64,000 nt of DNA, from NCBI GenBank assembly GCA_044224495.1, contig JBGAKG010000005.1, forward strand, positions 236,711 through 300,710, read 5' to 3'. This DNA is from Polyangiaceae bacterium. GTDB lineage: Bacteria; Myxococcota_A; Polyangia; Polyangiales; Polyangiaceae. Of the stretch, positions 5,689 to 62,886 are shown piece by piece. Numbering within the stretch: the stretch's first letter is position 1; each line of letters opens with the position of its first letter. The notes under the pieces are model-generated. The model was not told where the DNA came from. It worked only from the letters and a program-made list of their open reading frames with translations, and ran no database searches. The translations under genes were made by a program, and so were the position numbers.

Positions 5689-6383
5689 GACAACAGCCGG
5701 AGCCGGGGCTCCGCCTCGCGGGGCTTGCGCGCGGGCGCTTTCGAAGCGGTCTGGCGCTCGTCGCGCACGACCTTCCCATCGCGAAACTCGATGACGCGGT
5801 CGACGAGCTCCGCGACGTCCTCGCCGCGGTGCGAGCACAGGATCGTCAGGTGCTCCGACGGGCGCTGCCCGAGCCGCTCGATGAACGCGGCGCGGGCGTC
5901 GGGGTCCAGGTTCGCCGTGGGCTCGTCGCACACGAGGATCTCGGCGGGCGCCGCGAGCGCGAGCGCGGCGAGGAGCTTCTGCTTCATGCCTCCGGACAAA
6001 TCCCGGAAGCGCGTCGACGCGCAGCGCTCGACGTCGAGCCCGAGCGTCTTCGCCATCGCGCGCGCCGGCTCGTCGGCGATCCCACGCAAGGCGCAGACGG
6101 CGCGGATGACCTCCGACACGGGCGCCTCGATCGGCGGCGCGATCTGGGGGACGTACGCGATGCTCCGCAGCGCGACCTCCGGTCGCTGCGCGACGTCGAC
6201 CCCGCGTACCGTCACGACGCCGTCGACCCGGATGAGTCCGAGGATCGCGCGGAGGAGCGTCGTCTTCCCCGAGCCGTTCGCGCCGATGAAGGCGACGCGC
6301 TCGCCGCCGGCGAGCCGGAGCGAGACGTCGGCGAGCGCGACGACGGGTCCGAACTTCTTGCTCACGTGCTGGACCTCGATCAC
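5685..6383 (-). CDS. nosF: ABC transporter ATP-binding protein NosF
   Basis: 232 aa; Walker A GANGSGKT, signature LSGGMKQK, Walker B ILVCDEP; ATG overlaps nosD stop. Confidence 0.85.
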   Translation of the reverse strand: MIEVQHVSKKFGPVVALADVSLRLAGGERVAFIGANGSGKTTLLRAILGLIRVDGVVTVRGVDVAQRPEVALRSIAYVPQIAPPIEAPVSEVIRAVCALRGIADEPARAMAKTLGLDVERCASTRFRDLSGGMKQKLLAALALAAPAEILVCDEPTANLDPDARAAFIERLGQRPSEHLTILCSHRGEDVAELVDRVIEFRDGKVVRDERQTASKAPARKPREAEPRLRLLS

Positions 6384-7714
6384 TTGCTCCTCCTCTCGAA
6401 ACCATCCATCGCCGGGGACTTGTCGACGAGCATCCGATGCGTCGCCAGGACCGGTGCCGCCTGCGCGACCGCGTCCACGAGCGACATCGCCGCCGTCCCC
6501 CGGAAGTACATGAGCGACGGGTGCGCGTCGGTCAGCTCGCCCGAGAGCTGCTTCACCTCGAACGGGACGTCCCCCCGCCCGTCGCCGTCCAGGTCGTACC
6601 CCGCGTAGTCGGACCAGTGGTTCCCCTCGAACTCGACGTTCATGGCGTCGCCCCCGCCCTCGACCTCGGCCACCGTGACGTTCTCGCGGAGGTCGTTCCC
6701 GGTGAAGCGGACGCCGTCCTCGGAGCTGTGGAACCGGAGCCCAACGTCGTTCAGGGCGATCACGTTCGCGTCGAACCGCACCGGCATCGTCGGCGCGCGC
6801 GGGCTGCGATCGAGGTAGACCCCGACCGTGTTTCCCACGAGCCAGTTCCGCGCGAGCGTGACGGAATCACTCTCTTTGAAGCCAATCCCGACACCGGCCG
6901 GTCCCCGCGCACCCGCGAGCACGTTGTCTTCGACCCGGACGTGATCGCTGTACATGACGAAGATGCCGACGACGTTCTCGCGAACGTCCTCGCCGTGGAT
7001 GTAGGCGTCGTGCGCGTACATGAGGTGCGCGCCGTAGCGGCTGTGACGGACGACGTTCGCGTCGAGCTCGACGCGCCGCGAGTACCAGACGACCAAGTCC
7101 CGCGAGTGATCCAGCACGCAGCTCCGCACGACCGAGTCGGAGGACTCCCAGAGCTTGATGCCGTCGCCGCGGAGCTCCTCGTCGTCGCCGGGCCCGATCA
7201 CGCGGACGCGCTCGAGCGTGCAGTGCGGACACGGACCGAGCGAGACCCCGAACAGGGTGTCCTCGACCCGGGCGTCGGCGATCCGGACGCGCGCGCCTTT
7301 GACCTTGATCCCCGCGTCTTCGGCGGTGTGTCGATGCCCCGAGTGCCGGACGACCACGTTCTCGACGGTGACGTCGTCCGCTTCGATCATGAGCACGGTG
7401 CCGCGCCCGGTGCCCTCGAGCTCTGCGCCGAGCTCGCCGCGGAGCGTGAGCGAGCGCTTGATCGTGAAGTCCCCCCGGTACGTGTGGCCGCGGAGCCAGA
7501 TGACGTCGGGCCCGCTGGCGAGCGCCGCGGCCAGGCTCGCCTCGTCCTCCGCCACGAAGACCCCGCCGGGCGCGGTCCGCGCGACGGGGTTCGCGTCGGC
7601 CGGGAGCGGTGCCGGCCCGACGAGCGTCGGGCTCGCGGCGTGGGCTCGGTAGAGCACCATCGTCGCGAGCGCCACGCCACCGAGCATCCAGAGAGCACGC
7701 TTCCGGCCGAGCAC
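6380..7714 (-). CDS. nosD: periplasmic copper-binding protein NosD (right-handed beta-helix)
   Basis: 444 aa; signal peptide; repeated beta-helix segments (NVV..HS, GIKV, NVVR.) typical of NosD/CASH domain. Confidence 0.85.
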   Translation of the reverse strand: MLGRKRALWMLGGVALATMVLYRAHAASPTLVGPAPLPADANPVARTAPGGVFVAEDEASLAAALASGPDVIWLRGHTYRGDFTIKRSLTLRGELGAELEGTGRGTVLMIEADDVTVENVVVRHSGHRHTAEDAGIKVKGARVRIADARVEDTLFGVSLGPCPHCTLERVRVIGPGDDEELRGDGIKLWESSDSVVRSCVLDHSRDLVVWYSRRVELDANVVRHSRYGAHLMYAHDAYIHGEDVRENVVGIFVMYSDHVRVEDNVLAGARGPAGVGIGFKESDSVTLARNWLVGNTVGVYLDRSPRAPTMPVRFDANVIALNDVGLRFHSSEDGVRFTGNDLRENVTVAEVEGGGDAMNVEFEGNHWSDYAGYDLDGDGRGDVPFEVKQLSGELTDAHPSLMYFRGTAAMSLVDAVAQAAPVLATHRMLVDKSPAMDGFERRSK

Positions 7715-46515: not shown

Positions 46516-47211
46516 GTGGAGGCTTCCATGCGGCACGGGTGGATGCTCTTGGCAGGTGTGCTGGCGTTCGCAGCGACGGGCTGCGCGACCGGTCAAGCGA
46601 CGGACGAAGACGACGGCGGCACCACCGGCGACGCCGCGCCTCCGAAGGACGGCGGCAAGACCGACGGGAGCAACGGCTGCCCCACCGGCAAGGCGGGCAC
46701 GAACTGCGCGTCGTGCGCGAGCGGCTACCACGCGTGCGGCACCGACTGCCGGCCGGACCTCGGCAACGATCCCAAGAACGGTTGCTCGCACGGCTGCGGC
46801 GAAGCCTGCAAACCGCCCGCCCACTCCACGGCCAAGTGCACGAGCCAGGGCACCTGCGACTTCACGTGCGACCAGGGCTACACGCCGAGCGGCGGCGGCG
46901 ATGCGGGCGCGGGCTCGTGCGGCTGTCCGATCGGTCAGGTCGACTGCAACGGGACGTGTCAGCAGTGCTGCACCGCGTCGGACTGCCCGGCGAACGTCCA
47001 GTGCAACGGCGGCTCCTGCAGCGGGTGCGTCCCCGATTGGGGCGACTGCAACTCGAACCCGAGCGACGGCTGCGAGACGAAGCTCGACTCGAAATCGAAC
47101 TGCGGAGCATGCGGGAACAAGTGCTGCGGGAGCGTCTGCGGGTGCGGCTTCCTCGGCCTCGGCGGCGAGAGCTGCAACGTCAGTGGCAACACGCACAAGT
47201 GCGGTTGCTGA
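46516..47211 (+). CDS. Cys-rich secreted lipoprotein (32 Cys in 231 aa; repeated CxxC/CGxC units), hypothetical
   Basis: Signal + lipobox LAFAATGC; Gly/Asp/Thr linker then repeated 'C.SG..AC', 'CGxxC', 'NCGACGNKCCGSVCGC' modules; GC3-rich. Confidence 0.55.
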   Translation: MEASMRHGWMLLAGVLAFAATGCATGQATDEDDGGTTGDAAPPKDGGKTDGSNGCPTGKAGTNCASCASGYHACGTDCRPDLGNDPKNGCSHGCGEACKPPAHSTAKCTSQGTCDFTCDQGYTPSGGGDAGAGSCGCPIGQVDCNGTCQQCCTASDCPANVQCNGGSCSGCVPDWGDCNSNPSDGCETKLDSKSNCGACGNKCCGSVCGCGFLGLGGESCNVSGNTHKCGC

Positions 47212-53667: not shown

Positions 53668-54618
53668 ATGACCGCCGAGCTCACCCGCGAGTACGTCCGC
53701 GCACTCTACGATCGACCGCTGTTCCAACTCATCGACGAGGCCCGCTCGGTCCACCGCGCGAACCACAAGGACGACGAGGTCCAGCTCTGCACGCTCCTGT
53801 CCGTGAAGACCGGGGGCTGCTCCGAGGACTGCGCCTACTGCCCGCAGTCGAGCCACTACGAGACCACGGTCGAGCCCGAGAAGATGGTCGACGTGAAGGC
53901 CGTCATCGCGAGCGCGCGCAAGGCGAAGGAGCTCGGCTCCACGCGCTTCTGCATGGGTGCCGCCTGGCGCGAGGTGAAGGACGGACCGGCGTTCGATCGC
54001 GTCATCGAGATGGTCCGCGGCGTGAAGGCCGAGGGGCTCGAGGCGTGCGTGACGCTCGGCATGCTGACCGAGACGCAGGCGGCGCGGCTGAAGGAAGCCG
54101 GGCTGGACGCGTACAACCACAACCTCGACACGAGCCGCGAGAACTACCGCTCGATCATCAAGACGCGCACGTTCGACGATCGCCTGAACACGCTGAAGAA
54201 CGTCCGCAAGGCGGGCATCACCGTGTGCTCCGGCGGCATCATCGGCATGGGCGAGTCGATCGACGATCGCTGCGAGATGCTCCGCACGCTCGCGAACCTC
54301 TCCCCGCAGCCCGAGAGCGTCCCGATCAACGCGCTCGTCGCCGTGCCCGGCACCCCGCTCGCGGAGATGCCGCCCGTCGATCCGCTCGACCTCGTTCGCA
54401 TGATCGCGGTCGCCCGCATCCTGATGCCGAAGACGCGGGTTCGTCTCTCGGCCGGCCGCACCTCGCTCGGGCGCGAGGCGCAGCTCCTCTGCATGTTCGC
54501 GGGCGCGAACTCGATCTTCTACGGCGACACGCTCCTCACCACGCCGAACCCCGGCGAGGACGAAGACCGCTCGCTCCTCCGCGCCGCCGGGCTCACCGCG
54601 CAGGCGCCCGCGGTCTGA
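53668..54618 (+). CDS. bioB: biotin synthase
   Basis: 316 aa from ATG 53668; radical SAM '[10 protein letters not shown]', [2Fe-2S] ligands, 'YNHNLDTS' motif. Confidence 0.9.
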
Positions 54619-54685
54619 CGCGTCAACGGCTCGTTGCCGGGCTTCGGGACGAGGTCACGGCGTTGGCGGCGTCGGTATCGGTGTG

Positions 54686-54820
54686 AAGACGAGGACGTGC
54701 AGGAGGGACGTGGACGAGGACGTCGGATCGAGCACGGGCTACGACGACGACTACGGCCACGAGTAGGAGGCACGTGGACGATCGGTCGAGGACGTTTCTT
54801 CGAGGAGGAGGACGTGAGAG
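54686..54820. repeat. array of five GAGGACGT(G) copies plus one CACGTG in 135 bp between convergent bioB and lipoprotein genes
   Basis: Copies at 54693, 54706(GGGACGT), 54717, 54789, 54809; CACGTG at 54771; no convincing ORF. Confidence 0.6.
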
Positions 54821-54916
54821 CCAGACGAACCTGGGCGACGCCGGCGACGAGCGCCACCGCCCCGGCACCGGCAACGCCGGCGCCGAAGCGGAGGCCGAGG
54901 CGCGAGCGCCGAGCCT

Positions 54917-56170
54917 TCACGGGCACGAGATCTTCTCGATGAACGCGGCGGTGCCGTTCGCGTGGCCGCGGTAGTAGATCGCCCCGTTCGAGTACGCGAT
55001 GTGGTTGATCGAGCCGGTGCCGTAGTCGTCGGAGGGACCGATGACGGCGGGGAGCGCGAGCTCGAGCGCCGGGTGCGACGCCTTCGCGTCGTAGCCGCTC
55101 GGGAAGTTGTCGATGTTGCGGCCCGTGCCCGCGGCGAGCGTGAGCTTGCCGTCCAGGCTCAGGTACCAGACGTACCCGGCGCCCGCGACGATGAGGCTCT
55201 TCCCGTCGTTGGTGATCCCGCTGACCCCGGGGTCGCTGCCCTGCTGCACGGGCGGGAACGTGTCGGAGCCGCCACCGAGGATCGTGGTGAGCGCGCCCGT
55301 AGTCGTGTCGATCTGGATCACGTACGAGTGGTTCGCCGCGTCGCCACCGGCCGCGTAGAGCTTGCCACCGAGCACGGTGAAGTTCCGGATCTCGTTGATC
55401 GAGCCCGAGGCGACGGCGAGCGTCGCGAGCGTGCTCACCTTCCCCGCCGGATCGATCTTGCGCACGAGCCCGGCGCCGTTCGTCGTCTTGTGGTCGAACA
55501 CGTAGACGTTGCCGGCGTCGTCGGCCACGAGCCCGCGCAGGTTCTCGAACGTGGCGGCGCTACCGATGCCGTCGTCGTTGCCGCCCTTGGGCAGCGTGCT
55601 CTCCGTCGAAGGGTCGAGGCCCGTGAGCGGGCCCGCGGTGCCCGCGAGCGAGCTCACGGTGCACGTCGCCGGGTTCGACGGGTTCGTGACTTTGACGACC
55701 GCGTTCGCCCACATGTCCGTCGCCACGAGGCTCCCGTCCGGCAGCGCCGCGAGCCCGCGGATCTGCGTCAGCGACGCTTGCGCGCACGGCCCCATCTTGA
55801 AGTCGTACGTGCTGCCCGACGGGGTCTTGCCGGCGATCCGCGTCTCGACCGGGTTCGGCGCGGAGAGATCGACGTCCCAGAGCTCGCTCTCCTGGCGCGT
55901 GAAGAGGTGCCCCTTCGAGAAGACGAGGTTCTGCCACCCGAGCGGCGGATCCGCCTTGATCCCGGTTCCGCTCGTCGGTCGATCGAGCGGCTGTCCGTCG
56001 TAGACGGGGTTGCCGGCGAACCAGGTGCCGTTCGAGCACACGGAGCCTTGCGGGTTGGGCCCGCCGTCACCGCCGCCGCCGCCGCCGTCCGAGTCGCCGT
56101 TGGTCGTCGACTCGAGCACGCACGCGGACAGCAAGAGAAACGCTCCGATCACACCAATCTGAATCTTCAT
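54917..56170 (-). CDS. secreted lipoprotein with NHL/beta-propeller-like repeats, hypothetical
   Basis: ATG 56170 (GGAGG 6 nt upstream; ORF track start 56173 is TTG); lipobox LLLSAC; poly-Gly linker; repeated 'G.VYV.D', 'LYAAGGD' blade-like units. Confidence 0.55.
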   Translation of the reverse strand: MKIQIGVIGAFLLLSACVLESTTNGDSDGGGGGGDGGPNPQGSVCSNGTWFAGNPVYDGQPLDRPTSGTGIKADPPLGWQNLVFSKGHLFTRQESELWDVDLSAPNPVETRIAGKTPSGSTYDFKMGPCAQASLTQIRGLAALPDGSLVATDMWANAVVKVTNPSNPATCTVSSLAGTAGPLTGLDPSTESTLPKGGNDDGIGSAATFENLRGLVADDAGNVYVFDHKTTNGAGLVRKIDPAGKVSTLATLAVASGSINEIRNFTVLGGKLYAAGGDAANHSYVIQIDTTTGALTTILGGGSDTFPPVQQGSDPGVSGITNDGKSLIVAGAGYVWYLSLDGKLTLAAGTGRNIDNFPSGYDAKASHPALELALPAVIGPSDDYGTGSINHIAYSNGAIYYRGHANGTAAFIEKISCP

Positions 56171-56217
56171 CAATGGCCTCCAAGGGACGCGAAGTTGCGT
56201 CGGTCGAGCAGAGCCAT

Positions 56218-56233
56218 TGCACTCGGCGTACCG
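56218..56233 (-). promoter_or_regulatory. candidate sigma-54 (-24/-12) promoter CGGTACG-N4-GTGCA for the lipoprotein gene
   Basis: Minus-strand CGGTACGCCGAGTGCA matches TGGCACG-N4-TTGCA at GG and GC with correct spacing, ~50 nt upstream of ATG; sigma-54 activator encoded immediately upstream. Confidence 0.35.
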
Positions 56234-56293
56234 GAGCCCCGATCGCCGAACTCCCGCGATTTTCCCCCGCGATCGACCCCGGATCAGCGCGGG

Positions 56294-56327
56294 TGCAACG
56301 TTGCGTGCAACGCCCGCCGGCGTTGCA
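56294..56327. promoter_or_regulatory. composite palindromes sharing TGCAAC half-sites (GCAACGTTGC; TGCAACGCC-CGCC-GGCGTTGCA) abutting the EBP stop codon; candidate enhancer-binding site and/or terminator
   Basis: 10-bp perfect palindrome 56295-56304 and 9-4-9 perfect inverted repeat 56306-56327; 60-110 nt upstream of the candidate -24/-12 element. Confidence 0.4.
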
Positions 56328-57632
56328 TCACAGCCCGAAGCGCTTGATCCAGCGTTGGACCTGCTGGCGCGCCTTGCCCATGTCCCGCGCGACCTGGCTC
56401 ACGTTCCGATCGCACGCGGCGAGCCGACGCGCGAGCTCTTCGCGGAGGGCGGCGTCTTCGTCGCCGAGCGACGGTGGAGCGTCGCGGGCGACGATCGTCT
56501 CGGGGAGGTTCGCCACGCTCACCCTCTTCGTCGCGGCGCCCCCGTCGGCGAGGACCGTCGCGACGTCGACCGCCTGCTTCAGCTCGCGCACGTTCAACGG
56601 ATAGTCGTGGCGCAAGAGCGCGAGCGCGGCGTCCGTCTCGAACGTGAGCTCCGGCGCGACCATCCGCGCGAGGAGCTCGCCCACGTCCAGACGGCGCTCC
56701 CGGAGCGGCGGCACGGTGAACGTGAAGCCCCGCAGGCGCGCGTAGAGATCGGCGCGGAACGAGCCCGCCGTCACCTTCTCCGCGAGCGGCAGGTGCGTCG
56801 CCGACACCACGCGAACGTCGACCGGGACGCCCTGGAACGCGCCGACCGGCGTGACCTCGCGCTCCTGCAGCACGCGGAGCAGCGTCGACTGCGCGTTCGG
56901 AGGGAGGTCTCCGATCTCGTCGAGAAGCAGCGTGCCCCCGTCGGCGGAGCGCACGAAGCCGAGCTCGTCGGTCGTCGCGCCCGAGAACGCGCCGCGCCGA
57001 TGCCCGAACAAGAGCGACTCGACGAGATCCTTCGGCAGCGCTCCGCAGTTCACGGGCACGAACGCACCGCGGCGCTTCGAGCGCTCGTGGAGCGCGCGGG
57101 CGAGGACCTCCTTGCCGGTGCCGGTCTCGCCGAGGAGCAGCACCGGGAGCGGCGACTGCGCGATGCGCTCGAGCTTTGCGAGGTCGCGCGCGAGGGACGC
57201 GCTCGTCGTGAGGAACGGCCACGGCGCGCGCCGCTCGACGACCGGGCCCACGTCGGCGACGACCGCGAAGAACGTGTGCCCGGCGCGGACGAGCGTGCCC
57301 GCGTCGACGACGACGTCGGTCGCGGCTTCGTCGCCGACGAACGTCTGGTTCCGGGAGCCGCGGTCGACGATCCGGAAGCGCGTACCTTCGCGCGTGACGT
57401 CGAAGTACTCGCGCGACAGGTGCGTATCGGGGAGCTCGAGCCGGCCCGAGCCGCCGACACGACGCTCGGACCCGCGCCCGACCGTGAGGCCCTTGCCGAG
57501 CGGAGCCACGAACGCGCCGGCGGTCGGTCGATCGCACTCGAGCACGACGACGAGCCCCGGCACCTCGACGACGCGCCGGTCGGCGGCGCTGCGGTCGGTG
57601 GGCGACGTATCGCTCTTCGTGCCGCCGCTCAT
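56328..57632 (-). CDS. sigma-54-dependent transcriptional activator with N-terminal FHA domain
   Basis: 434 aa from ATG 57632; FHA ([13 protein letters not shown]), AAA+ sigma54 domain ([14 protein letters not shown] 'GAFTGA'-type motif, ESLLFGH), C-terminal Fis-type HTH. Confidence 0.8.
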
Positions 57633-57661
57633 CGCGGACACGATAGCAAAACAGGGAGGCT

Positions 57662-59275
57662 TCAGCGGGCGCGGAAGTACCCGACGAACATCGAGGCGTA
57701 GGCCGGCTTCCCGCCGAGGTCGTCTTGCCCCACCGCCGGTGGGATGCTCGCTGCGTCGAGCTTCTGCCGCGCGCAGGACGCAATCGCGTCGGCTTGGGGC
57801 GACGGCGCGAGCGCGTCGTTGCGGCGAACTTCGACGACGACCTCGCGCGGGCCGCCCTTCGGCCAGCGGCACGCGACGGACACCGACCAACGCTCGTCGT
57901 CGGTCGCGGGCGGCAGGCACGGCTTCATCGTCTCGGCCGCGGTCTGGAACGCGGGGATCGTGCCCACCTCGCCGATGCCGCCGTGGACGCCAGGGACGAC
58001 GTCGAGCACCCACGCCGGGTGCGCTCCGGCCGCGGCCGACGGCGCCGTGGCCGATGCGTGCGAGCCCGGCGACGCACCATGGCCGACGGTCGCGACGGGC
58101 GCCACGCTCGACGCGCTCGACGCAACGGCAGAAGCGGGACCGACCGCCGCGCTCGGAGCGCTCGACGGGGCGAGCGCCACCGGCTCCGTCCACGACGCGC
58201 TCGTGCTCGGAGCCGCCGCCGCCGGCGCCGCGTTCGCGTGCAGGGCGCTCCACGCGAACCACCCGCCGACGACCGCCACGCCGAGCGCCCCGAGCGCCAC
58301 CCAGCGCCCGCCACGCGCGCGCGCGCGGCGCGCCGGAGCCGGAGGCGCACCGCTCGCCAACGTGCGCGAGGTCGGTGCGTCGGTCGCACCGCGCCCCTCG
58401 AGCCGATCGAGCAACGCCGCGACCTCGTCGATCGAGGGGCGGTCGGCCGGCTTCCGCGCCAGCATCCGCATCACGAAACGGCTCACGTCCTCGAGGCCTT
58501 GCCCGGGGACGCGCTCCGCGAGCGGCACGACGTCCCCGCTCGTGATCGCCTTGAGGATCGGCCCCATGCCGCCGTCCACCGGGCGCGTCCCCGACAGGCA
58601 CTCGTAGAGCATCACCCCGAGCGCCCACACGTCCGTCTTCGCGTCCAGCTCGCGCTCGCCGAAGATCTGCTCGGGCGCCATGTACGCGGGCGTCCCGACC
58701 AGCGCGCCCGTCGACGTGAACGTGTCCGCGTCGCCGTCGAAGCGCTTCGCGATCCCGAAGTCGAGGACGCGAACGCCGTCGGTCGCGAGGAACACGTTCT
58801 CCGGCTTGAGATCGCGGTGCACGAGCCCCTGCTCGTGCGCGGCCTTCACCGCGGCGACGACCGGACGCAGGACACGGGCACACTCCTCGGGCGAGAGACG
58901 CCCGCCCGCACCGCGCAGCCGCTCGCGGAGCGATTCGCCCTCGAGCAGGTCCATGACGAGGTAGGGCGTGCCACCGTCCGTGTACTCGATCGCGTGGACG
59001 CGCGCGACGTTGGGGTGGCGCACCTTCATCGCCGCTTCGGCCTCGCGGAGGAACCGCGCATGGCTGACGGGATCGTCGCGCCGAACGTCGCGGAGCAGCT
59101 TCAACGCGACGTCGCGTTGGTTCTCCTCGTCGCGCGCCGCCCAGACGATCCCCATCCCGCCTTCGCCGATCACGCGCGCGAGGCGATGCCGCCCGACGGT
59201 CGTCCCCTCGGCGAACGCGTCGTCACGGGAGGGGGCCATCGCGCGCATCCTCGCAGAAACTGGGACGGATGCCAC
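57662..59275 (-). CDS. Ser/Thr protein kinase with TM segment and extracytoplasmic C-terminal domain
   Basis: 537 aa; Hanks motifs ([35 protein letters not shown]), Ala/Pro/Ser-rich linker, TM '[18 protein letters not shown]'. Confidence 0.8.
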
Positions 59276-60763
59276 TCAGCGACGCGGCTTGGGCGTGGCC
59301 AGCGCGCGCGCGAGCGTGTTTCGCCCGATCCCGAGCCGACGCGCGGCCTCCGTCTTGTTCCCGTCGCACGCGTCCACCGTGGCCTCGACGTAGCGACGCT
59401 CGGCCTCGGCCAGCGTGAGCCCGATCGGGATCGCACCGGCGGTCTCTTCGCCCGCATCGGTCGGGGCCTCGCGCGGGAAGTTCTCCTCGCGGACGACCCC
59501 ATCGGGCGCGAGCACGACGGCGCTCTCGATCCAGTGCTCGAGCTCGCGGACGTTGCCCGGCCACGTGTGACGACGGAGCCGCTCGAGCGCGCGCGGATCG
59601 AAGGTCGGATCGGGCCGGTGGTAGCGCCGCGCGTACATCGTGGCGAAGTGCCGCGCGAGCTCCTCGACGTCTCCGGTGCCGCGCGCGCGCAAGCTCGGCA
59701 CGGTGATCTCGACGACGCGGATTCGATAGAAGAGGTCCTCGCGGAACTTCCCTTCGCGGACGAGCTTCACCAAGTCGCGGTGCGTGGCCGCCACGACCCG
59801 CACGTCGGCCTCCTCCGTCGTGCGCCCGCCCACGCGCTCGAAGACGCGGTCCTGGAGGAAGCGCAGGAGCTTCCCTTGCGCCTCCAGCGGGAGCTCGGCG
59901 ATCTCGTCGAGGAACAGCGTGCCTCCCCGCGCGACCTCCACCCGCCCCACGATCCGCCGGTCGGCGCCGGTGAACGCGCCGCGCTCGTGGCCGAACAGCT
60001 CGCTCTCGACGAGCTCGCGCGGGAGCGTCGTGCAGTCCACGGTGACGAAGGGCCCCACGCCGCGGAGCGAGTTCACGTGGATCGCGCGCGCGAAGCGACC
60101 CTTGCCGGTGCCGGTCTCCCCGCGGAGGAGCACCGTCGCGTCGGTCTGCGCCGCGAGCAGGATCCGCTCGTGGACCTCGCGGAGCGCGTCGCTCCGGCCG
60201 ACGAGGCCGTTGAAGCGCCCGCGCAGCGTCACGCCGGGCTCGCGAACGTCCGCCGCGCGGAGCGTCGTCAGCGCGAGCGCGCGCGCGAGCTGGGTCGCGA
60301 GCGCGAGCAGGTACCGCTCGTCCTCTTCGTCGAAGACGTCCCCCTCGGCCTTGTTCAGAACCTGCACCACGCCGCGGATCGGCGACGCCGTGGTCTCGCG
60401 CATCGGGACGACCAAGGTCGAGCGCGTGACGAACCCCGTCGTCTTGTCCGCCCGCGGATCGAAGCGCGGGTCCTTCGCCGCGTCCGCCACGCGCACCGGC
60501 TCTCCGGTGCGCGCGACGTGCCCGACGATCCCGCGATCGAGCGCCTGCCGCAGCTCGGGCACCTCGGGCAGGAGCGCGACGCGGGTGAAGAGATCGCCGC
60601 GCTCCGCGTCGAAGAGCCAGAGGCTCGCGCGCTCCGCCCGGAGCGCCTCCGCGATGCGCTCGCACGCGGCGCGGAGGAGCGCGTCCAGGTCGATCTCGCG
60701 GGCGAGCAGCGAAGCGAGATCCACCAGGAGCGAGAGCCGACTCTGCATCGAAGGCCGCAGCAT
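59276..60763 (-). CDS. sigma-54-dependent transcriptional activator with N-terminal GAF domain
   Basis: 495 aa from ATG 60763; GAF region, AAA+ ([22 protein letters not shown]), C-terminal HTH. Confidence 0.8.
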
Positions 60764-60798
60764 AGCCCGGCTGCCTTCGGGAAGCTGCGCCGCGAAGG

Positions 60799-61674
60799 TC
60801 AAGCGGCGGAGCGCTCCCCGTCGCTGGTGGCGCCGGGCTCGCCCGTCTCCCCCACCTCCAGCGTCGTGCCTTCGCGCGCGGCGACGGAGTCCGCGAAGAG
60901 CTCCCTCGCGCGCGCCTCGATCGTGCGAACCCCTTCGTCGGTGCGCTGCGGGTCGTGGTGGAAGAGGACGAGCTTCTTCACCCCCGCCGCGCGGGCGACC
61001 TCCGCGCCCGCGACGTACGTCGAGTGGCCCCACCCGACCTTCGAGCGGCCGCCGTCGCCGCGGTACTCCTCCGGGGTGTACTGCGCGTCGTAGACGAGCA
61101 GGTCGGCGCCCTGGGCGAGCTCCTTGAGGACCGGGTCGATGCACGCGTAGTGCTCGGTGTCGGTCGCGTACACGACGGCGTGACCGGCGTGCTCGATCCG
61201 ATAGGCGTACACGCCACCGGGGTGATTCAGACGCGCGACGCGGACGCGCACGTCACCGAGCTCGAGCCACTGGTTCGGGCGCGCTTCGCGGTAGCCGAGC
61301 TCGGCCGAGAGATCGTCGAGCTGGACCGGGAAGTGCGGCTCCGTCATCTGGCGCGAGAGCTTGTCGCGGAGGCCGTGGCGCCCGTCGCTCGAGCCCACGA
61401 TCGTGAGCTTGGTCGACGGGAGGTAGGCGGGGACGAAGAACGGGAGCCCTTGGATGTGGTCCCAGTGGAAATGGGAGAGGAGCAGCGTGGCTTCCACCGG
61501 CTGCTTCGCCGCGAGGAGCGAGTCACCGAGCCCACGCAGGCCGGTGCCCGCGTCGAGGATCAGCCGCTGCGCGCCGCAGCGCACCTCGACGCAACTGGTG
61601 TTGCCGCCGACCTCGGCGGTGGAAGGCCCTGGAGAAGCGATGCTGCCGCGGACGCCCCAGAATCGAACGAGCAT
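60799..61674 (-). CDS. MBL-fold metallo-hydrolase
   Basis: 291 aa from ATG 61674 ([11 protein letters not shown]..); 'HFHWDHIQG' metal-binding motif. Confidence 0.7.
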
Positions 61675-61821
61675 GGGAACCTGCCTTTCGACGAGGCCCC
61701 ATTGCGAGCGCCGTGCCGGTCGCTCTCCGCCCGAATTTCCCGCGAAATTCGCGGTAACCGTGCGCTCGTGAACGCCGGCAGCGCTCCACTTCGGAGCGGA
61801 GCGCTCCATCCGTGATCGCCG

Positions 61822-62886
61822 TCAGAACGTGGCCGCCGCGCGGGCGACCTCCTTGTCGAGCTGGCCCGCCTGCACGAGCGCACGGAGGTGCATCTCGAAG
61901 GTCTGCATCCCGTACGGGTGCACGCCCTTCTCCATCAGCTCCTTCAGCGGTGGGTTCGCGTCGGGGCGCTTGATGGCCTCGCGCACGGTGCCGGTCGCGA
62001 CGAGCACCTCGGCCGCGAGGACGAGGCCCCCTTGCGTCCCCGGGAGCAACCGCTGCGCGATGATGCCCTGGAGCGAGTCACCGATCCGCTCGCGGAGCTC
62101 GTCGGCGCTCCCGGGTTGGCCCTTGGGCGCGAGCGCGAGCATGCGGCCGACCGTGCGCGGCACGTCGGGGGTGTGGAGCGTGGACAGAACCAAGTGCCCC
62201 GTCTCGGCGGCCTTGAGCGCGATGTCCATCGTGACCTCGTCGCGGATCTCGCCGACGAGGATCACGTCCGGATCCTGGCGCAACGCGGCCCGGAGCGCGT
62301 CGGCGAACGAGCCGGTGTCGATCCCGATCTCGCGCTGGCTGATGGAGCACTTGTCGTCGGTGTGGAGGAACTCGACCGGATCTTCGATCGTCACGATGTG
62401 GAGCGGCTGCGTGTGGTTCAAGTGAGCGATCATGGCCGCGAGCGTGGAGCTCTTGCCGTTGCCCGCCGCCCCGACCAGGAGCACGAGCCCGCGGTCGCGC
62501 TCGGCGAGGTACTGCGCGGGGCTCGGAACCCCGAGCTGCTCGAACGTCGGGATGACGAGCGGGATTGCGCGCATCACGATCGCGAGCGTCCCCTTCTGGC
62601 GATACACGTTCACGCGGAAGCGCCCGACCCCCGGCGCCTCGTACGCGGTGTCGTGCTCGAGCAGCGCGTCGAGGTTGTCCCGGAGATCGCCGCGCCGCAC
62701 GAGGTGCCGGGCGAGGTGCTCCGTGTCGGACGGCTTCAGCGGCTCCGAGCGGAAATAGACGATGTCCCCGCGCACGCGCGCGCCCGGCGGCTGCCCGACC
62801 TTGAGGTGGACGTCGCTCGCCTTCGCGGCCACGGCCTTGGTGAGGAGCTGAACGAGAAACGCTTCGCTCGCGTAGGGGCTATCCAT
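61822..62886 (-). CDS. pilT: type IV pilus retraction ATPase PilT family
   Basis: 354 aa; Walker A 'GAAGNGKSST', Asp box, His box 'GHLVLSTLHT'. Confidence 0.85.
   Translation of the reverse strand: MDSPYASEAFLVQLLTKAVAAKASDVHLKVGQPPGARVRGDIVYFRSEPLKPSDTEHLARHLVRRGDLRDNLDALLEHDTAYEAPGVGRFRVNVYRQKGTLAIVMRAIPLVIPTFEQLGVPSPAQYLAERDRGLVLLVGAAGNGKSSTLAAMIAHLNHTQPLHIVTIEDPVEFLHTDDKCSISQREIGIDTGSFADALRAALRQDPDVILVGEIRDEVTMDIALKAAETGHLVLSTLHTPDVPRTVGRMLALAPKGQPGSADELRERIGDSLQGIIAQRLLPGTQGGLVLAAEVLVATGTVREAIKRPDANPPLKELMEKGVHPYGMQTFEMHLRALVQAGQLDKEVARAAATF

Follow-up and report, generated by a model that had tools for sequence, protein, structure and literature searches.

A predicted membrane kinase, FHA-type sigma-54 activator and lipoprotein module in a Polyangiaceae bacterium

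A 64,000-nt stretch of DNA from a Polyangiaceae bacterium (GCA_044224495.1, JBGAKG010000005.1, forward strand 236,711-300,710; hereafter, the window) carries, at positions 54917-59275, genes for a membrane Ser/Thr protein kinase (STPK), a sigma-54 enhancer-binding protein (EBP) with an FHA domain, and a lipoprotein. We consider that these three genes, the sequence dyads behind the EBP gene and a sigma-54 promoter-like element before the lipoprotein gene probably form an envelope-signalling module of a Polyangiaceae-type myxobacterium. All the genes of interest are on the minus strand, in DNA of about 72% G+C. The original prediction, made from the sequence of the window, had placed an STPK, an EBP, palindromes, a promoter-like site, a ribosome-binding site (RBS) and a lipoprotein in this region; their positions were borne out, all on the minus strand. 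The STPK gene (59239..57662, with an alternative GTG start at 59275) is separated by 29 nt from the EBP gene (57632..56328, 434 aa), which is followed by a 157-nt intergenic region and the lipoprotein gene (54917..56170, 417 aa).

The evidence within the window was mixed, so the support had to come from relatives. Comparison of gene orders suggested that the three genes are a conserved unit with permuted order. In four related metagenomic loci, L081-L084, the order is lipoprotein, STPK, FHA-EBP, with gaps of 23-42 nt or 1-nt overlaps. In L085, the lipoprotein gene is followed by the STPK gene and the contig ends before any EBP gene, while L091 has the EBP gene followed by the lipoprotein gene, as in the window. 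Upstream of the lipoprotein gene, all six loci carry (GTTGCA)TGCAACGTTGCACCC, an A/T patch, a near-consensus sigma-54 element and an RBS. The distance from the dyad centre to the GG of the -24 element is exactly 55 nt in each of the six, and the intervening sequence is otherwise poorly conserved. The promoter elements, which match the consensus at 10 or more of 12 positions, are CGGCACC-GCGG-TTGCA in L081 and L082, CGGCACT-GCCG-TTGCA in L084, CGGCATC-GCCG-TTGCA in L085 and TGGCATG-TCGG-ATGCA in L091. As a negative control, lipoprotein paralogues of about 61% identity (L086-L089) had neither the dyad nor a -24/-12 element. No STPK was detected on these contigs of 2.5-3 kb, an absence that is evaluable only in L086 (558 nt downstream).

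In most relatives, the lipoprotein gene thus heads a lipoprotein-STPK-EBP operon, which would imply an autoregulatory loop. The description of the circuit as linear in the original prediction holds for the window and L091 and fails for most relatives. A further inverted repeat, GTTGCAC-N7-GTGCAAC, was seen in L082 (2866-2890), and likewise in L083-L085, where it spans the -12 element to just before GGAGG. It overlaps promoter and leader, and may serve as an additional site for the activator or as an operator for autoregulation. The window lacks this repeat and has only CGCAAC at 56199..56194.

In the window, half-sites begin right after the stop codon of the EBP gene (TGA, 56330..56328), and the sequence reads TGCAAC-GCCGGCGGGC-GTTGCA-C-GCAAC-GTTGCA-CCC. 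The distal half-site pair, TGCAAC-N10-GTTGCA (56306..56327), is a perfect inverted repeat, TGCAACGCC-GGCG-GGCGTTGCA, followed by C-GCAACGTTGCA. Its 9-nt arms are 100% complementary around a 4-nt loop, in agreement with the earlier claim that the EBP stop abuts perfect palindromes built on TGCAAC half-sites. The proximal dyad, cGCAAC/GTTGCA followed by CCC (56294..56305), is the conserved core of the predicted upstream activating sequence (UAS). Three exact TGCAAC/GTTGCA hexamers within 34 bp occur nowhere else in the window and in none of 300 first-order Markov simulations. The proximal dyad is the only match to TGCAACGTTGCA in the window at up to two mismatches; a single such 12-mer is what chance would give. 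In the alignment of seven loci (A2), the block GTTGCA(C/T)GCAACGTTGCACCC was nearly invariant, with 20 of 21 columns identical, or 19 of 21 once the first half-site of L081 and a dyad position in L085 were counted. The dyads of the window depart from those of its relatives: the proximal dyad reads CGCAAC, with one T-to-C change, and the distal dyad is split by 10 nt. We regard this 10-nt spacer as specific to the window because the equivalent site of L091, which has the same gene order, is an uninterrupted TGCAACGTTGCA.

Could the palindromes be only the terminator of the EBP gene, with a fortuitous -24/-12 match and a lipoprotein gene transcribed from another promoter or by read-through? A perfect hairpin of 9 bp with a 4-nt loop does start 1 nt after the stop codon, and the -24/-12 match is at chance level in the window. 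This explanation is nevertheless highly improbable. In five relatives (L081-L085), the dyad comes after genes other than the EBP gene, either unrelated or divergent (ECF sigma gene, hydrolase, Laminin_G_3), and therefore cannot serve as an EBP terminator there; it also keeps the fixed 55 nt to a near-consensus -24/-12 element. L091 has the gene order of the window without a long hairpin. In the window itself, the hairpin RNA is not unusually stable (z = -1.1), it lacks a U-tract, and no terminator was called. The comparison thus favors the proposal that the palindrome is a UAS and not a terminator.

A second TGCAAC cluster, with four hexamers in 230 bp (46940-47180, plus strand), was considered as another target and rejected as coding sequence. 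Its hexamers (46945-47173) encode Cys-Asn pairs in a protein with Cys-rich repeats (…DCNG…QCNGGSC…DCNSNPSDGCE…SCNVSG…).

Between the dyads and the lipoprotein gene of the window lies the predicted -24/-12 element CGGTACG-CCGA-GTGCA (56218..56233). It agrees with the consensus TGGCACG-N4-TTGCW at 9 of 12 positions, with GG (56232-56231) and GC (56220-56219) intact. Among 26 sites on both strands of the window that keep GG and GC with at least 9 of 12 matches, it is the only one in the 157-nt intergenic region. The distance from the centre of the proximal dyad to its GG is 67 nt. An A-tract, AAAAT (56259..56263), lies 37 nt after the dyad centre amid DNA of about 70% G+C, and each of the 10 loci compared has an A/T patch at +35 to +40 relative to the dyad centre. 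Bend elements between UAS and promoter are known from sigma-54 promoters generally, and this A-tract is a probable bend or IHF-type (integration host factor) element. We predict the transcription start site of the lipoprotein gene near 56208. The GGAGG that had been proposed as its RBS is present at 56177..56181, 6 nt before the ATG at 56170, and is kept in L081-L085. As for the -24/-12 match of the original prediction, the site is present at 67 nt and is better conserved in relatives, but within the window alone it does not exceed chance. Scans of 54500-61900 for sigma-70 promoters and intrinsic terminators made no calls, and an Rfam scan gave no match.

The EBP has the central domain expected of a sigma-54 activator. 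Its AAA+ domain (residues 142-304; 57209..56721) matched Sigma54_activat (PF00158) with E = 7e-59 and 198.7 bits. The Walker motifs GETGTGKE and LLLDEIGD were invariant in an alignment of 14 sequences (A3). The loop that contacts sigma-54 in the GAFTGA family reads GAFSGA here (56993..56976) and in 13 of the 14 aligned EBPs. The other one, P0030, has GTSSPA, and all 14 agree at the Gly and Ser positions of the loop. Thr or Ser at the fourth position is an accepted variation of GAFTGA (PMC3162934). At the C-terminus, a putative helix-turn-helix (HTH) region (residues about 397-434; 56444..56331) with the recognition helix KARQQ gave sub-threshold matches to HTH_29, HTH_23 and HTH_28 and no match to HTH_8. 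It is highly conserved, and its pattern is of the Fis type by eye. In a large protein collection, the EBP belongs to a clade of 65-74% identity from soil metagenomes and metagenome-assembled genomes of Polyangiaceae. The best cultured matches in a species-representative genome collection, from Sorangium and Polyangium, are 44-47% identical, and the lipoprotein gene is not syntenic in them.

The N-terminal FHA domain (PF00498; residues about 26-125; 57557..57258) scored 22.1 bits against a cut-off of 20.7. Marginal by Pfam, the FHA fold was confirmed by structure prediction. The AlphaFold model of residues 1-140 had a predicted local distance difference test score (pLDDT) of 90, and the best PDB matches of this model by Foldseek were the FHA domains of OdhI, GarA, DgcB and EmbR (E = 5e-7 to 1e-4). 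The predicted phospho-threonine-binding residues R53, S73 and N95 were invariant in 35 sequences. Ahead of the domain is a Thr-rich tail (57632..57588), which is identical in nine close orthologues. Of the 21 sequences nearest to the window EBP (itself included), 17 carry the tail motif (S/T)DT(S/W). We propose here the same tail-FHA switch as in GarA, OdhI and DgcB because in those proteins such a tail is the substrate of the kinase and, once phosphorylated, the ligand of the protein's own FHA domain; the Thr-rich tail is thus a candidate phospho-acceptor, with T5, T9 and T12 as the predicted sites.

The STPK has a Pkinase domain (PF00069; 165 bits; residues 21-273) with the Hanks motifs VALK at residue 44, HRDLKPEN at 141, DFG at 160 and APE at 188. 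A single hydrophobic transmembrane segment was read from the sequence (residues 313-333; 58303..58241), followed by an Ala/Ser/Pro-rich linker and a C-terminal extracytoplasmic domain of about 115 aa (residues about 408-525; 58018..57665). This domain has three conserved Cys and the motif WPKGxPRE…DAASIP…GQDD…VGYF, and no Pfam family was found for it. It is kept not only in the orthologues, which are 51-65% identical, but also in the paralogous kinases of L092 and L093, whose target lipoproteins differ. The kinases of L094 and L095 have a C-terminal region unrelated to it.

Of the 10 evaluable loci in the EBP clade at 55% identity or more, 9 have an STPK gene directly beside the EBP gene. The two genes occur in three arrangements: STPK then EBP, EBP then STPK, and divergent. 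With the adjacency in these arrangements and the FHA fold confirmed, the comparison upholds the view that kinase control of the FHA-EBP is plausible.

Recognition of the dyad by the adjacent EBP would lead one to expect TGCAAC dyads also beside more distant EBPs that share its recognition helix. This was the case for L094 and L095, whose EBPs have KARQQ at 56-58% identity and which each carry a single TGCAAC-type multi-dyad. In Minicystis rosea (L094; CP016211), GCAAC-GTTGCG-TGCAAC-GTTGCG lies 54 nt from TGGAACA-TCGG-TTGCT, in front of a gene (L094 10017..8656) for a 453-aa secreted BNR-type protein. In L095, GTTGCA-TGCAAC-GTTGCA-TGCAAC lies 57 nt from TGGAACG-CCGG-GTGCT, in front of the orthologous BNR gene. 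There is one dyad per relative locus of 11-13 kb, always upstream of the target gene.

Instead of KARQQ, the recognition helix of a paralogous EBP clade (P0016-P0019; 64-68% identical) reads KAR(K/R)Q. In L093, a locus with this helix, the half-sites are changed to GTCGCA-TGCGAC-GTCGCA, 55 nt from CGGCACG-ACCG-TTGCT and followed by genes for a 175-aa lipoprotein, the EBP and an STPK. In Polyangium, where the helix is KARMQ, three GCGCAAC repeats and a T-tract come before TGGCACC-GGCC-TTGCC and the gene for a lipoprotein; in L005, the repeats are GTGTGACAC and the promoter-like element is TGGCACG-CTTC-GTGCT. The covariation of half-site and recognition helix is suggestive, in few independent clades. 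The residue concerned corresponds to the DNA-contacting Arg-Asn-Thr stretch of NtrC. Such an operator code would predict that the EBPs discriminate between TGCAACGTTGCA and TGCGACGTCGCA, and that Q-to-R in KARQQ switches the preference.

On either side of the genes for the 45%-identical FHA-EBPs with KARMQ lie triple direct GCAAC/GTTGC repeats (L001/L002, about 7320-7560; L001-L006, about 5830-5880). These repeats adjoin sigma-54-like promoters and lipoprotein genes. The divergent promoters upstream of these EBPs read GGGTACG-GGTC-TTGCG or GGCATG-N4-TTGTA, the latter without a canonical -12 GC.

The dyads might also be bound by another regulator, such as the EBP with a GAF domain (GAF-EBP) encoded upstream of the STPK or an unlinked factor, or the FHA-EBP might be controlled by other kinases or independently of phospho-threonine. 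The assignment of the binder is indirect, in myxobacteria EBPs number in the dozens and STPKs about 100-300, and one EBP of the family (L096) has no adjacent kinase. We judge this alternative quite unlikely. The dyad occurs together with the FHA-EBP clade in loci that lack the GAF-EBP, and among paralogues and distant relatives a different recognition helix goes with a different half-site. Moreover, the operon of the GAF-EBP has different repeats, GGAGCGCTCC, and the kinase adjacency survives three gene arrangements. The FHA-EBP thus stays the favored candidate for binding the dyad, with the adjacent STPK as its candidate kinase.

The predicted target is a lipoprotein. Its N-terminus, MKIQIGVIGAFLLLSAC, contains the lipobox LSAC (LLLSAC) with Cys17, as read from the sequence, and this Cys is nearly invariant across 32 homologues. 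Next to a Gly/Asp-rich linker, the protein has a six-bladed NHL-type beta-propeller according to its AlphaFold model (pLDDT 87; predicted TM-score, pTM, 0.85). Foldseek matches in the PDB were teneurin NHL propellers, the NHL domains of Thin, TRIM71 and TRIM2, Pizza6 and NHLRC2, with query-normalised TM-scores of about 0.5-0.6. Pfam reported only DUF6923 (27.9 bits against a cut-off of 27) and no match to NHL (PF01436); the latter is annotated in P0137 and P0158, two members of the family, and in distant YvrE-like matches. The NHL-repeat label given to this protein before is therefore right at the level of fold and for PF01436 in relatives, but by sequence the membership of the window protein is marginal. 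The family is small, with 66 proteins from Polyangiaceae, Polyangiales and Labilithrix. On a 6.8-kb contig (L090), a 50%-identical homologue lies behind a good -24/-12 element, GGGCACG-TCGG-TTGCT (2620-2742). This contig has no clear TGCAAC dyad and no EBP or kinase gene.

Several observations weigh against a working module in the window. No rpoN gene is present in the 64 kb. The promoter has three mismatches, including GGTAC for GGCAC and GTGCA for TTGCA, and matches to the -24/-12 consensus with up to three mismatches number 58 in the window against 75 expected, which is the chance level. Compared with relatives that have 55 nt, the promoter is 12 nt further from the dyad, which changes the helical phase. 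In the FHA domain, the window EBP alone has Tyr (SREY) for a His conserved in 13 aligned relatives, and it has Gln in the SxNGT loop; the precomputed Pfam list of P0001, which is identical to the window EBP, omits FHA. The L096 EBP without an adjacent kinase, the exception to the linkage noted above, is 58% identical to that of the window. Finally, the covariation of helix and half-site is based on one complete paralogous locus, L093; L092 is cut by the contig end, and its partial site has a misfitting spacing of 38 nt.

Many of these features could be explained by decay: promoter and UAS would be real in the family and degenerate here after rearrangement, the lipoprotein gene being expressed weakly or by read-through from the STPK and EBP genes, and the circuit being vestigial. 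The -24/-12 element of the window is indeed the poorest of all loci, and the window copy is the most degenerate of the family. Its surplus of 12 nt falls between the A-tract and the -24 element, the halves of the distal dyad are set apart, the proximal dyad has its T-to-C change, the FHA His is replaced by Tyr, and no terminator was predicted between the EBP and lipoprotein genes. On the other hand, the window keeps the invariant GG and GC with the correct 10 nt between them, as well as the A-tract and three exact half-sites. The three open reading frames are intact and 51-74% identical to their orthologues, and GGTAC-type -24 elements occur in Polyangium relatives as well. We consider decay of the window copy unlikely.

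The mechanism that we propose for the module is as follows. The single-pass membrane Hanks kinase would sense an extracytoplasmic signal through its Cys-containing C-terminal domain and would control the adjacent EBP through threonine phosphorylation. The likeliest switch is one like that of GarA, OdhI and DgcB: the STPK would phosphorylate either the tail of the EBP or itself, and docking of the FHA domain on the phospho-threonine would alter how the AAA+ ring is assembled. The Fis-like HTH of the EBP would bind the TGCAAC/GTTGCA dyads, whose centres are some 80-92 bp ahead of the predicted transcription start, and the A/T patch may aid DNA looping. The ATPase of the EBP would then remodel the sigma-54 holoenzyme at the GG-N10-GC promoter, and the lipoprotein gene would be transcribed. 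In most relatives, where the promoter heads a lipoprotein-kinase-activator operon, this would result in positive autoregulation. In the window, the promoter would drive the lipoprotein gene only, and the pair of kinase and activator would probably be read from the operon upstream.

This upstream context (59276..61718, minus strand), assigned by Pfam and by conservation in the related locus L098, consists of an MBL-fold gene (61674..60799) and the GAF-EBP gene (60763..59276). Before them is a sigma-54-like promoter, CGGCACG-GCGC-TCGCA, at 61718..61703 on the minus strand. Upstream of this promoter (61703-61800), GGAGCGCTCC and GGAGCGCTGC are 20 nt apart and are followed by the A/T tracts GCGAATTTCGCGGGAAATTCGGG. 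L098 keeps this architecture, with two copies of GGTGCTCC, A/T tracts and CGGCACG-TTCC-TCGCA. The gap between the GAF-EBP and STPK genes is only 0-36 nt, the alternative GTG start of the STPK at 59275 abutting the stop codon of the GAF-EBP gene, and no terminator was predicted there; we therefore infer that the STPK and EBP genes are co-transcribed with the MBL/GAF-EBP operon. The circuit of the window may then be the lower tier of a two-step EBP cascade and not a self-contained loop.

No orthologue of the GAF-EBP was found among the fetched FHA-EBP loci. The GAF-EBP gene belongs to the widely conserved core, with about 70% identity in Sorangium, Polyangium, Pendulispora and Labilithrix, whereas the FHA-EBP and lipoprotein families are narrow in distribution. 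The nearest relative found, L098, with a GAF-EBP of 85% identity, has genes for a B-lectin, a PilT-like ATPase, a gene block, MBL, GAF-EBP, DUF218 and BioB. In L098 (10476-11340), the DUF218 gene lies between those for GAF-EBP and BioB, and the block of STPK, FHA-EBP and lipoprotein genes is absent. We conclude from this absence that the 4.4-kb block is accessory here, by insertion or rearrangement. Its G+C content of 0.72 is the same as that of the flanks, and the orientation of the BioB gene in the window is opposite to that in L098.

A broader reading can be offered only tentatively. The family could represent a portable, rearranging cassette of Polyangiaceae, made of an STPK, a tail-FHA EBP, dyads of the GCAAC family and a secreted propeller. 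In such a cassette, the helix residue (Q, K/R or M) would track the half-site base, an AAA+ activator would be under a phospho-tail switch in the style of GarA and DgcB, and the lipoprotein might feed back on the periplasmic domain of the kinase; a partnership of lipoprotein and this domain is speculation. If this holds, kinase, operator and target would for the first time all be defined for an FHA-EBP system, which could then serve as a template in decoding the numerous orphan pairs of STPK and EBP in myxobacteria. A link of kinase and sigma-54 networks by FHA-EBPs has been assumed since 2005 and, to our knowledge, never shown for a defined set of kinase, activator, operator and target. The family offers a full predicted set in less than 5 kb, with the dyad TGCAACGTTGCA, the 55-nt spacing, a candidate specificity residue and a candidate phospho-acceptor tail, and Minicystis rosea, which is in culture, has a version of the module too. 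The value in practice lies in a model that can be tested and a motif with which to predict regulons, and not in a new principle.

Jelsbak, Givskov and Kaiser reportedly described FHA-type EBPs as a class in Myxococcus xanthus, a myxobacterium rich in Hanks kinases (in PNAS in 2005). The title of their study is cited in PMC11980068 and PMC4320627. These proteins have an N-terminal FHA domain, an AAA+ domain and a C-terminal HTH, an architecture that the EBP studied here appears to share, and they are presumed to be controlled by Ser/Thr kinases and not by histidine kinases. We know of no cognate kinase, operator or direct target defined for them. In our case, kinase, dyad, spacing and target were predicted from synteny and footprinting, and the lineage is Polyangiaceae.

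In the NtrC/NifA paradigm, dyads some 80-150 bp ahead of a GG-N10-GC promoter, with a bend element in between, are bound by an activator that has a GAFTGA loop and a Fis-like HTH. The module agrees with it in having dyads upstream of GG-N10-GC, a predicted bend element, an AAA+ domain with a GAFSGA loop and a putative Fis-like HTH. It differs in its input domain, which is FHA and not a receiver or GAF domain, and in an HTH below the Pfam HTH_8 threshold. Its half-sites also differ, being contiguous hexamers, TGCAAC/GTTGCA, in three to four alternating units.

In GarA and OdhI of actinobacteria and in DgcB, as in the window EBP, a short Thr-containing tail precedes the FHA domain by about 15-25 residues; it has TDTS here, and in GarA and OdhI it has ETTS. 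In DgcB of Bdellovibrio, phosphorylation of the tail activates the fused output domain (PMC6733907). The output of the window EBP is a sigma-54 AAA+ activator and not a metabolic inhibitor or GGDEF domain, the +3 residue preferences differ, and tail phosphorylation is a prediction here. The pair of EmbR and PknH in Mycobacterium tuberculosis likewise combines an FHA transcription factor with a neighbouring membrane Hanks kinase. EmbR differs in being a sigma-70 activator of the OmpR/SARP type; its FHA domain is C-terminal, and it lacks any AAA+ or sigma-54 mechanism. The FHA-EBP class, the paradigm of dyad, bend and GG-N10-GC promoter, and the tail-FHA switches were thus already known; what the present sequences appear to add is a conserved set of kinase, activator, operator and target, the operator sequence with its spacing, a candidate specificity residue and a candidate phospho-acceptor.

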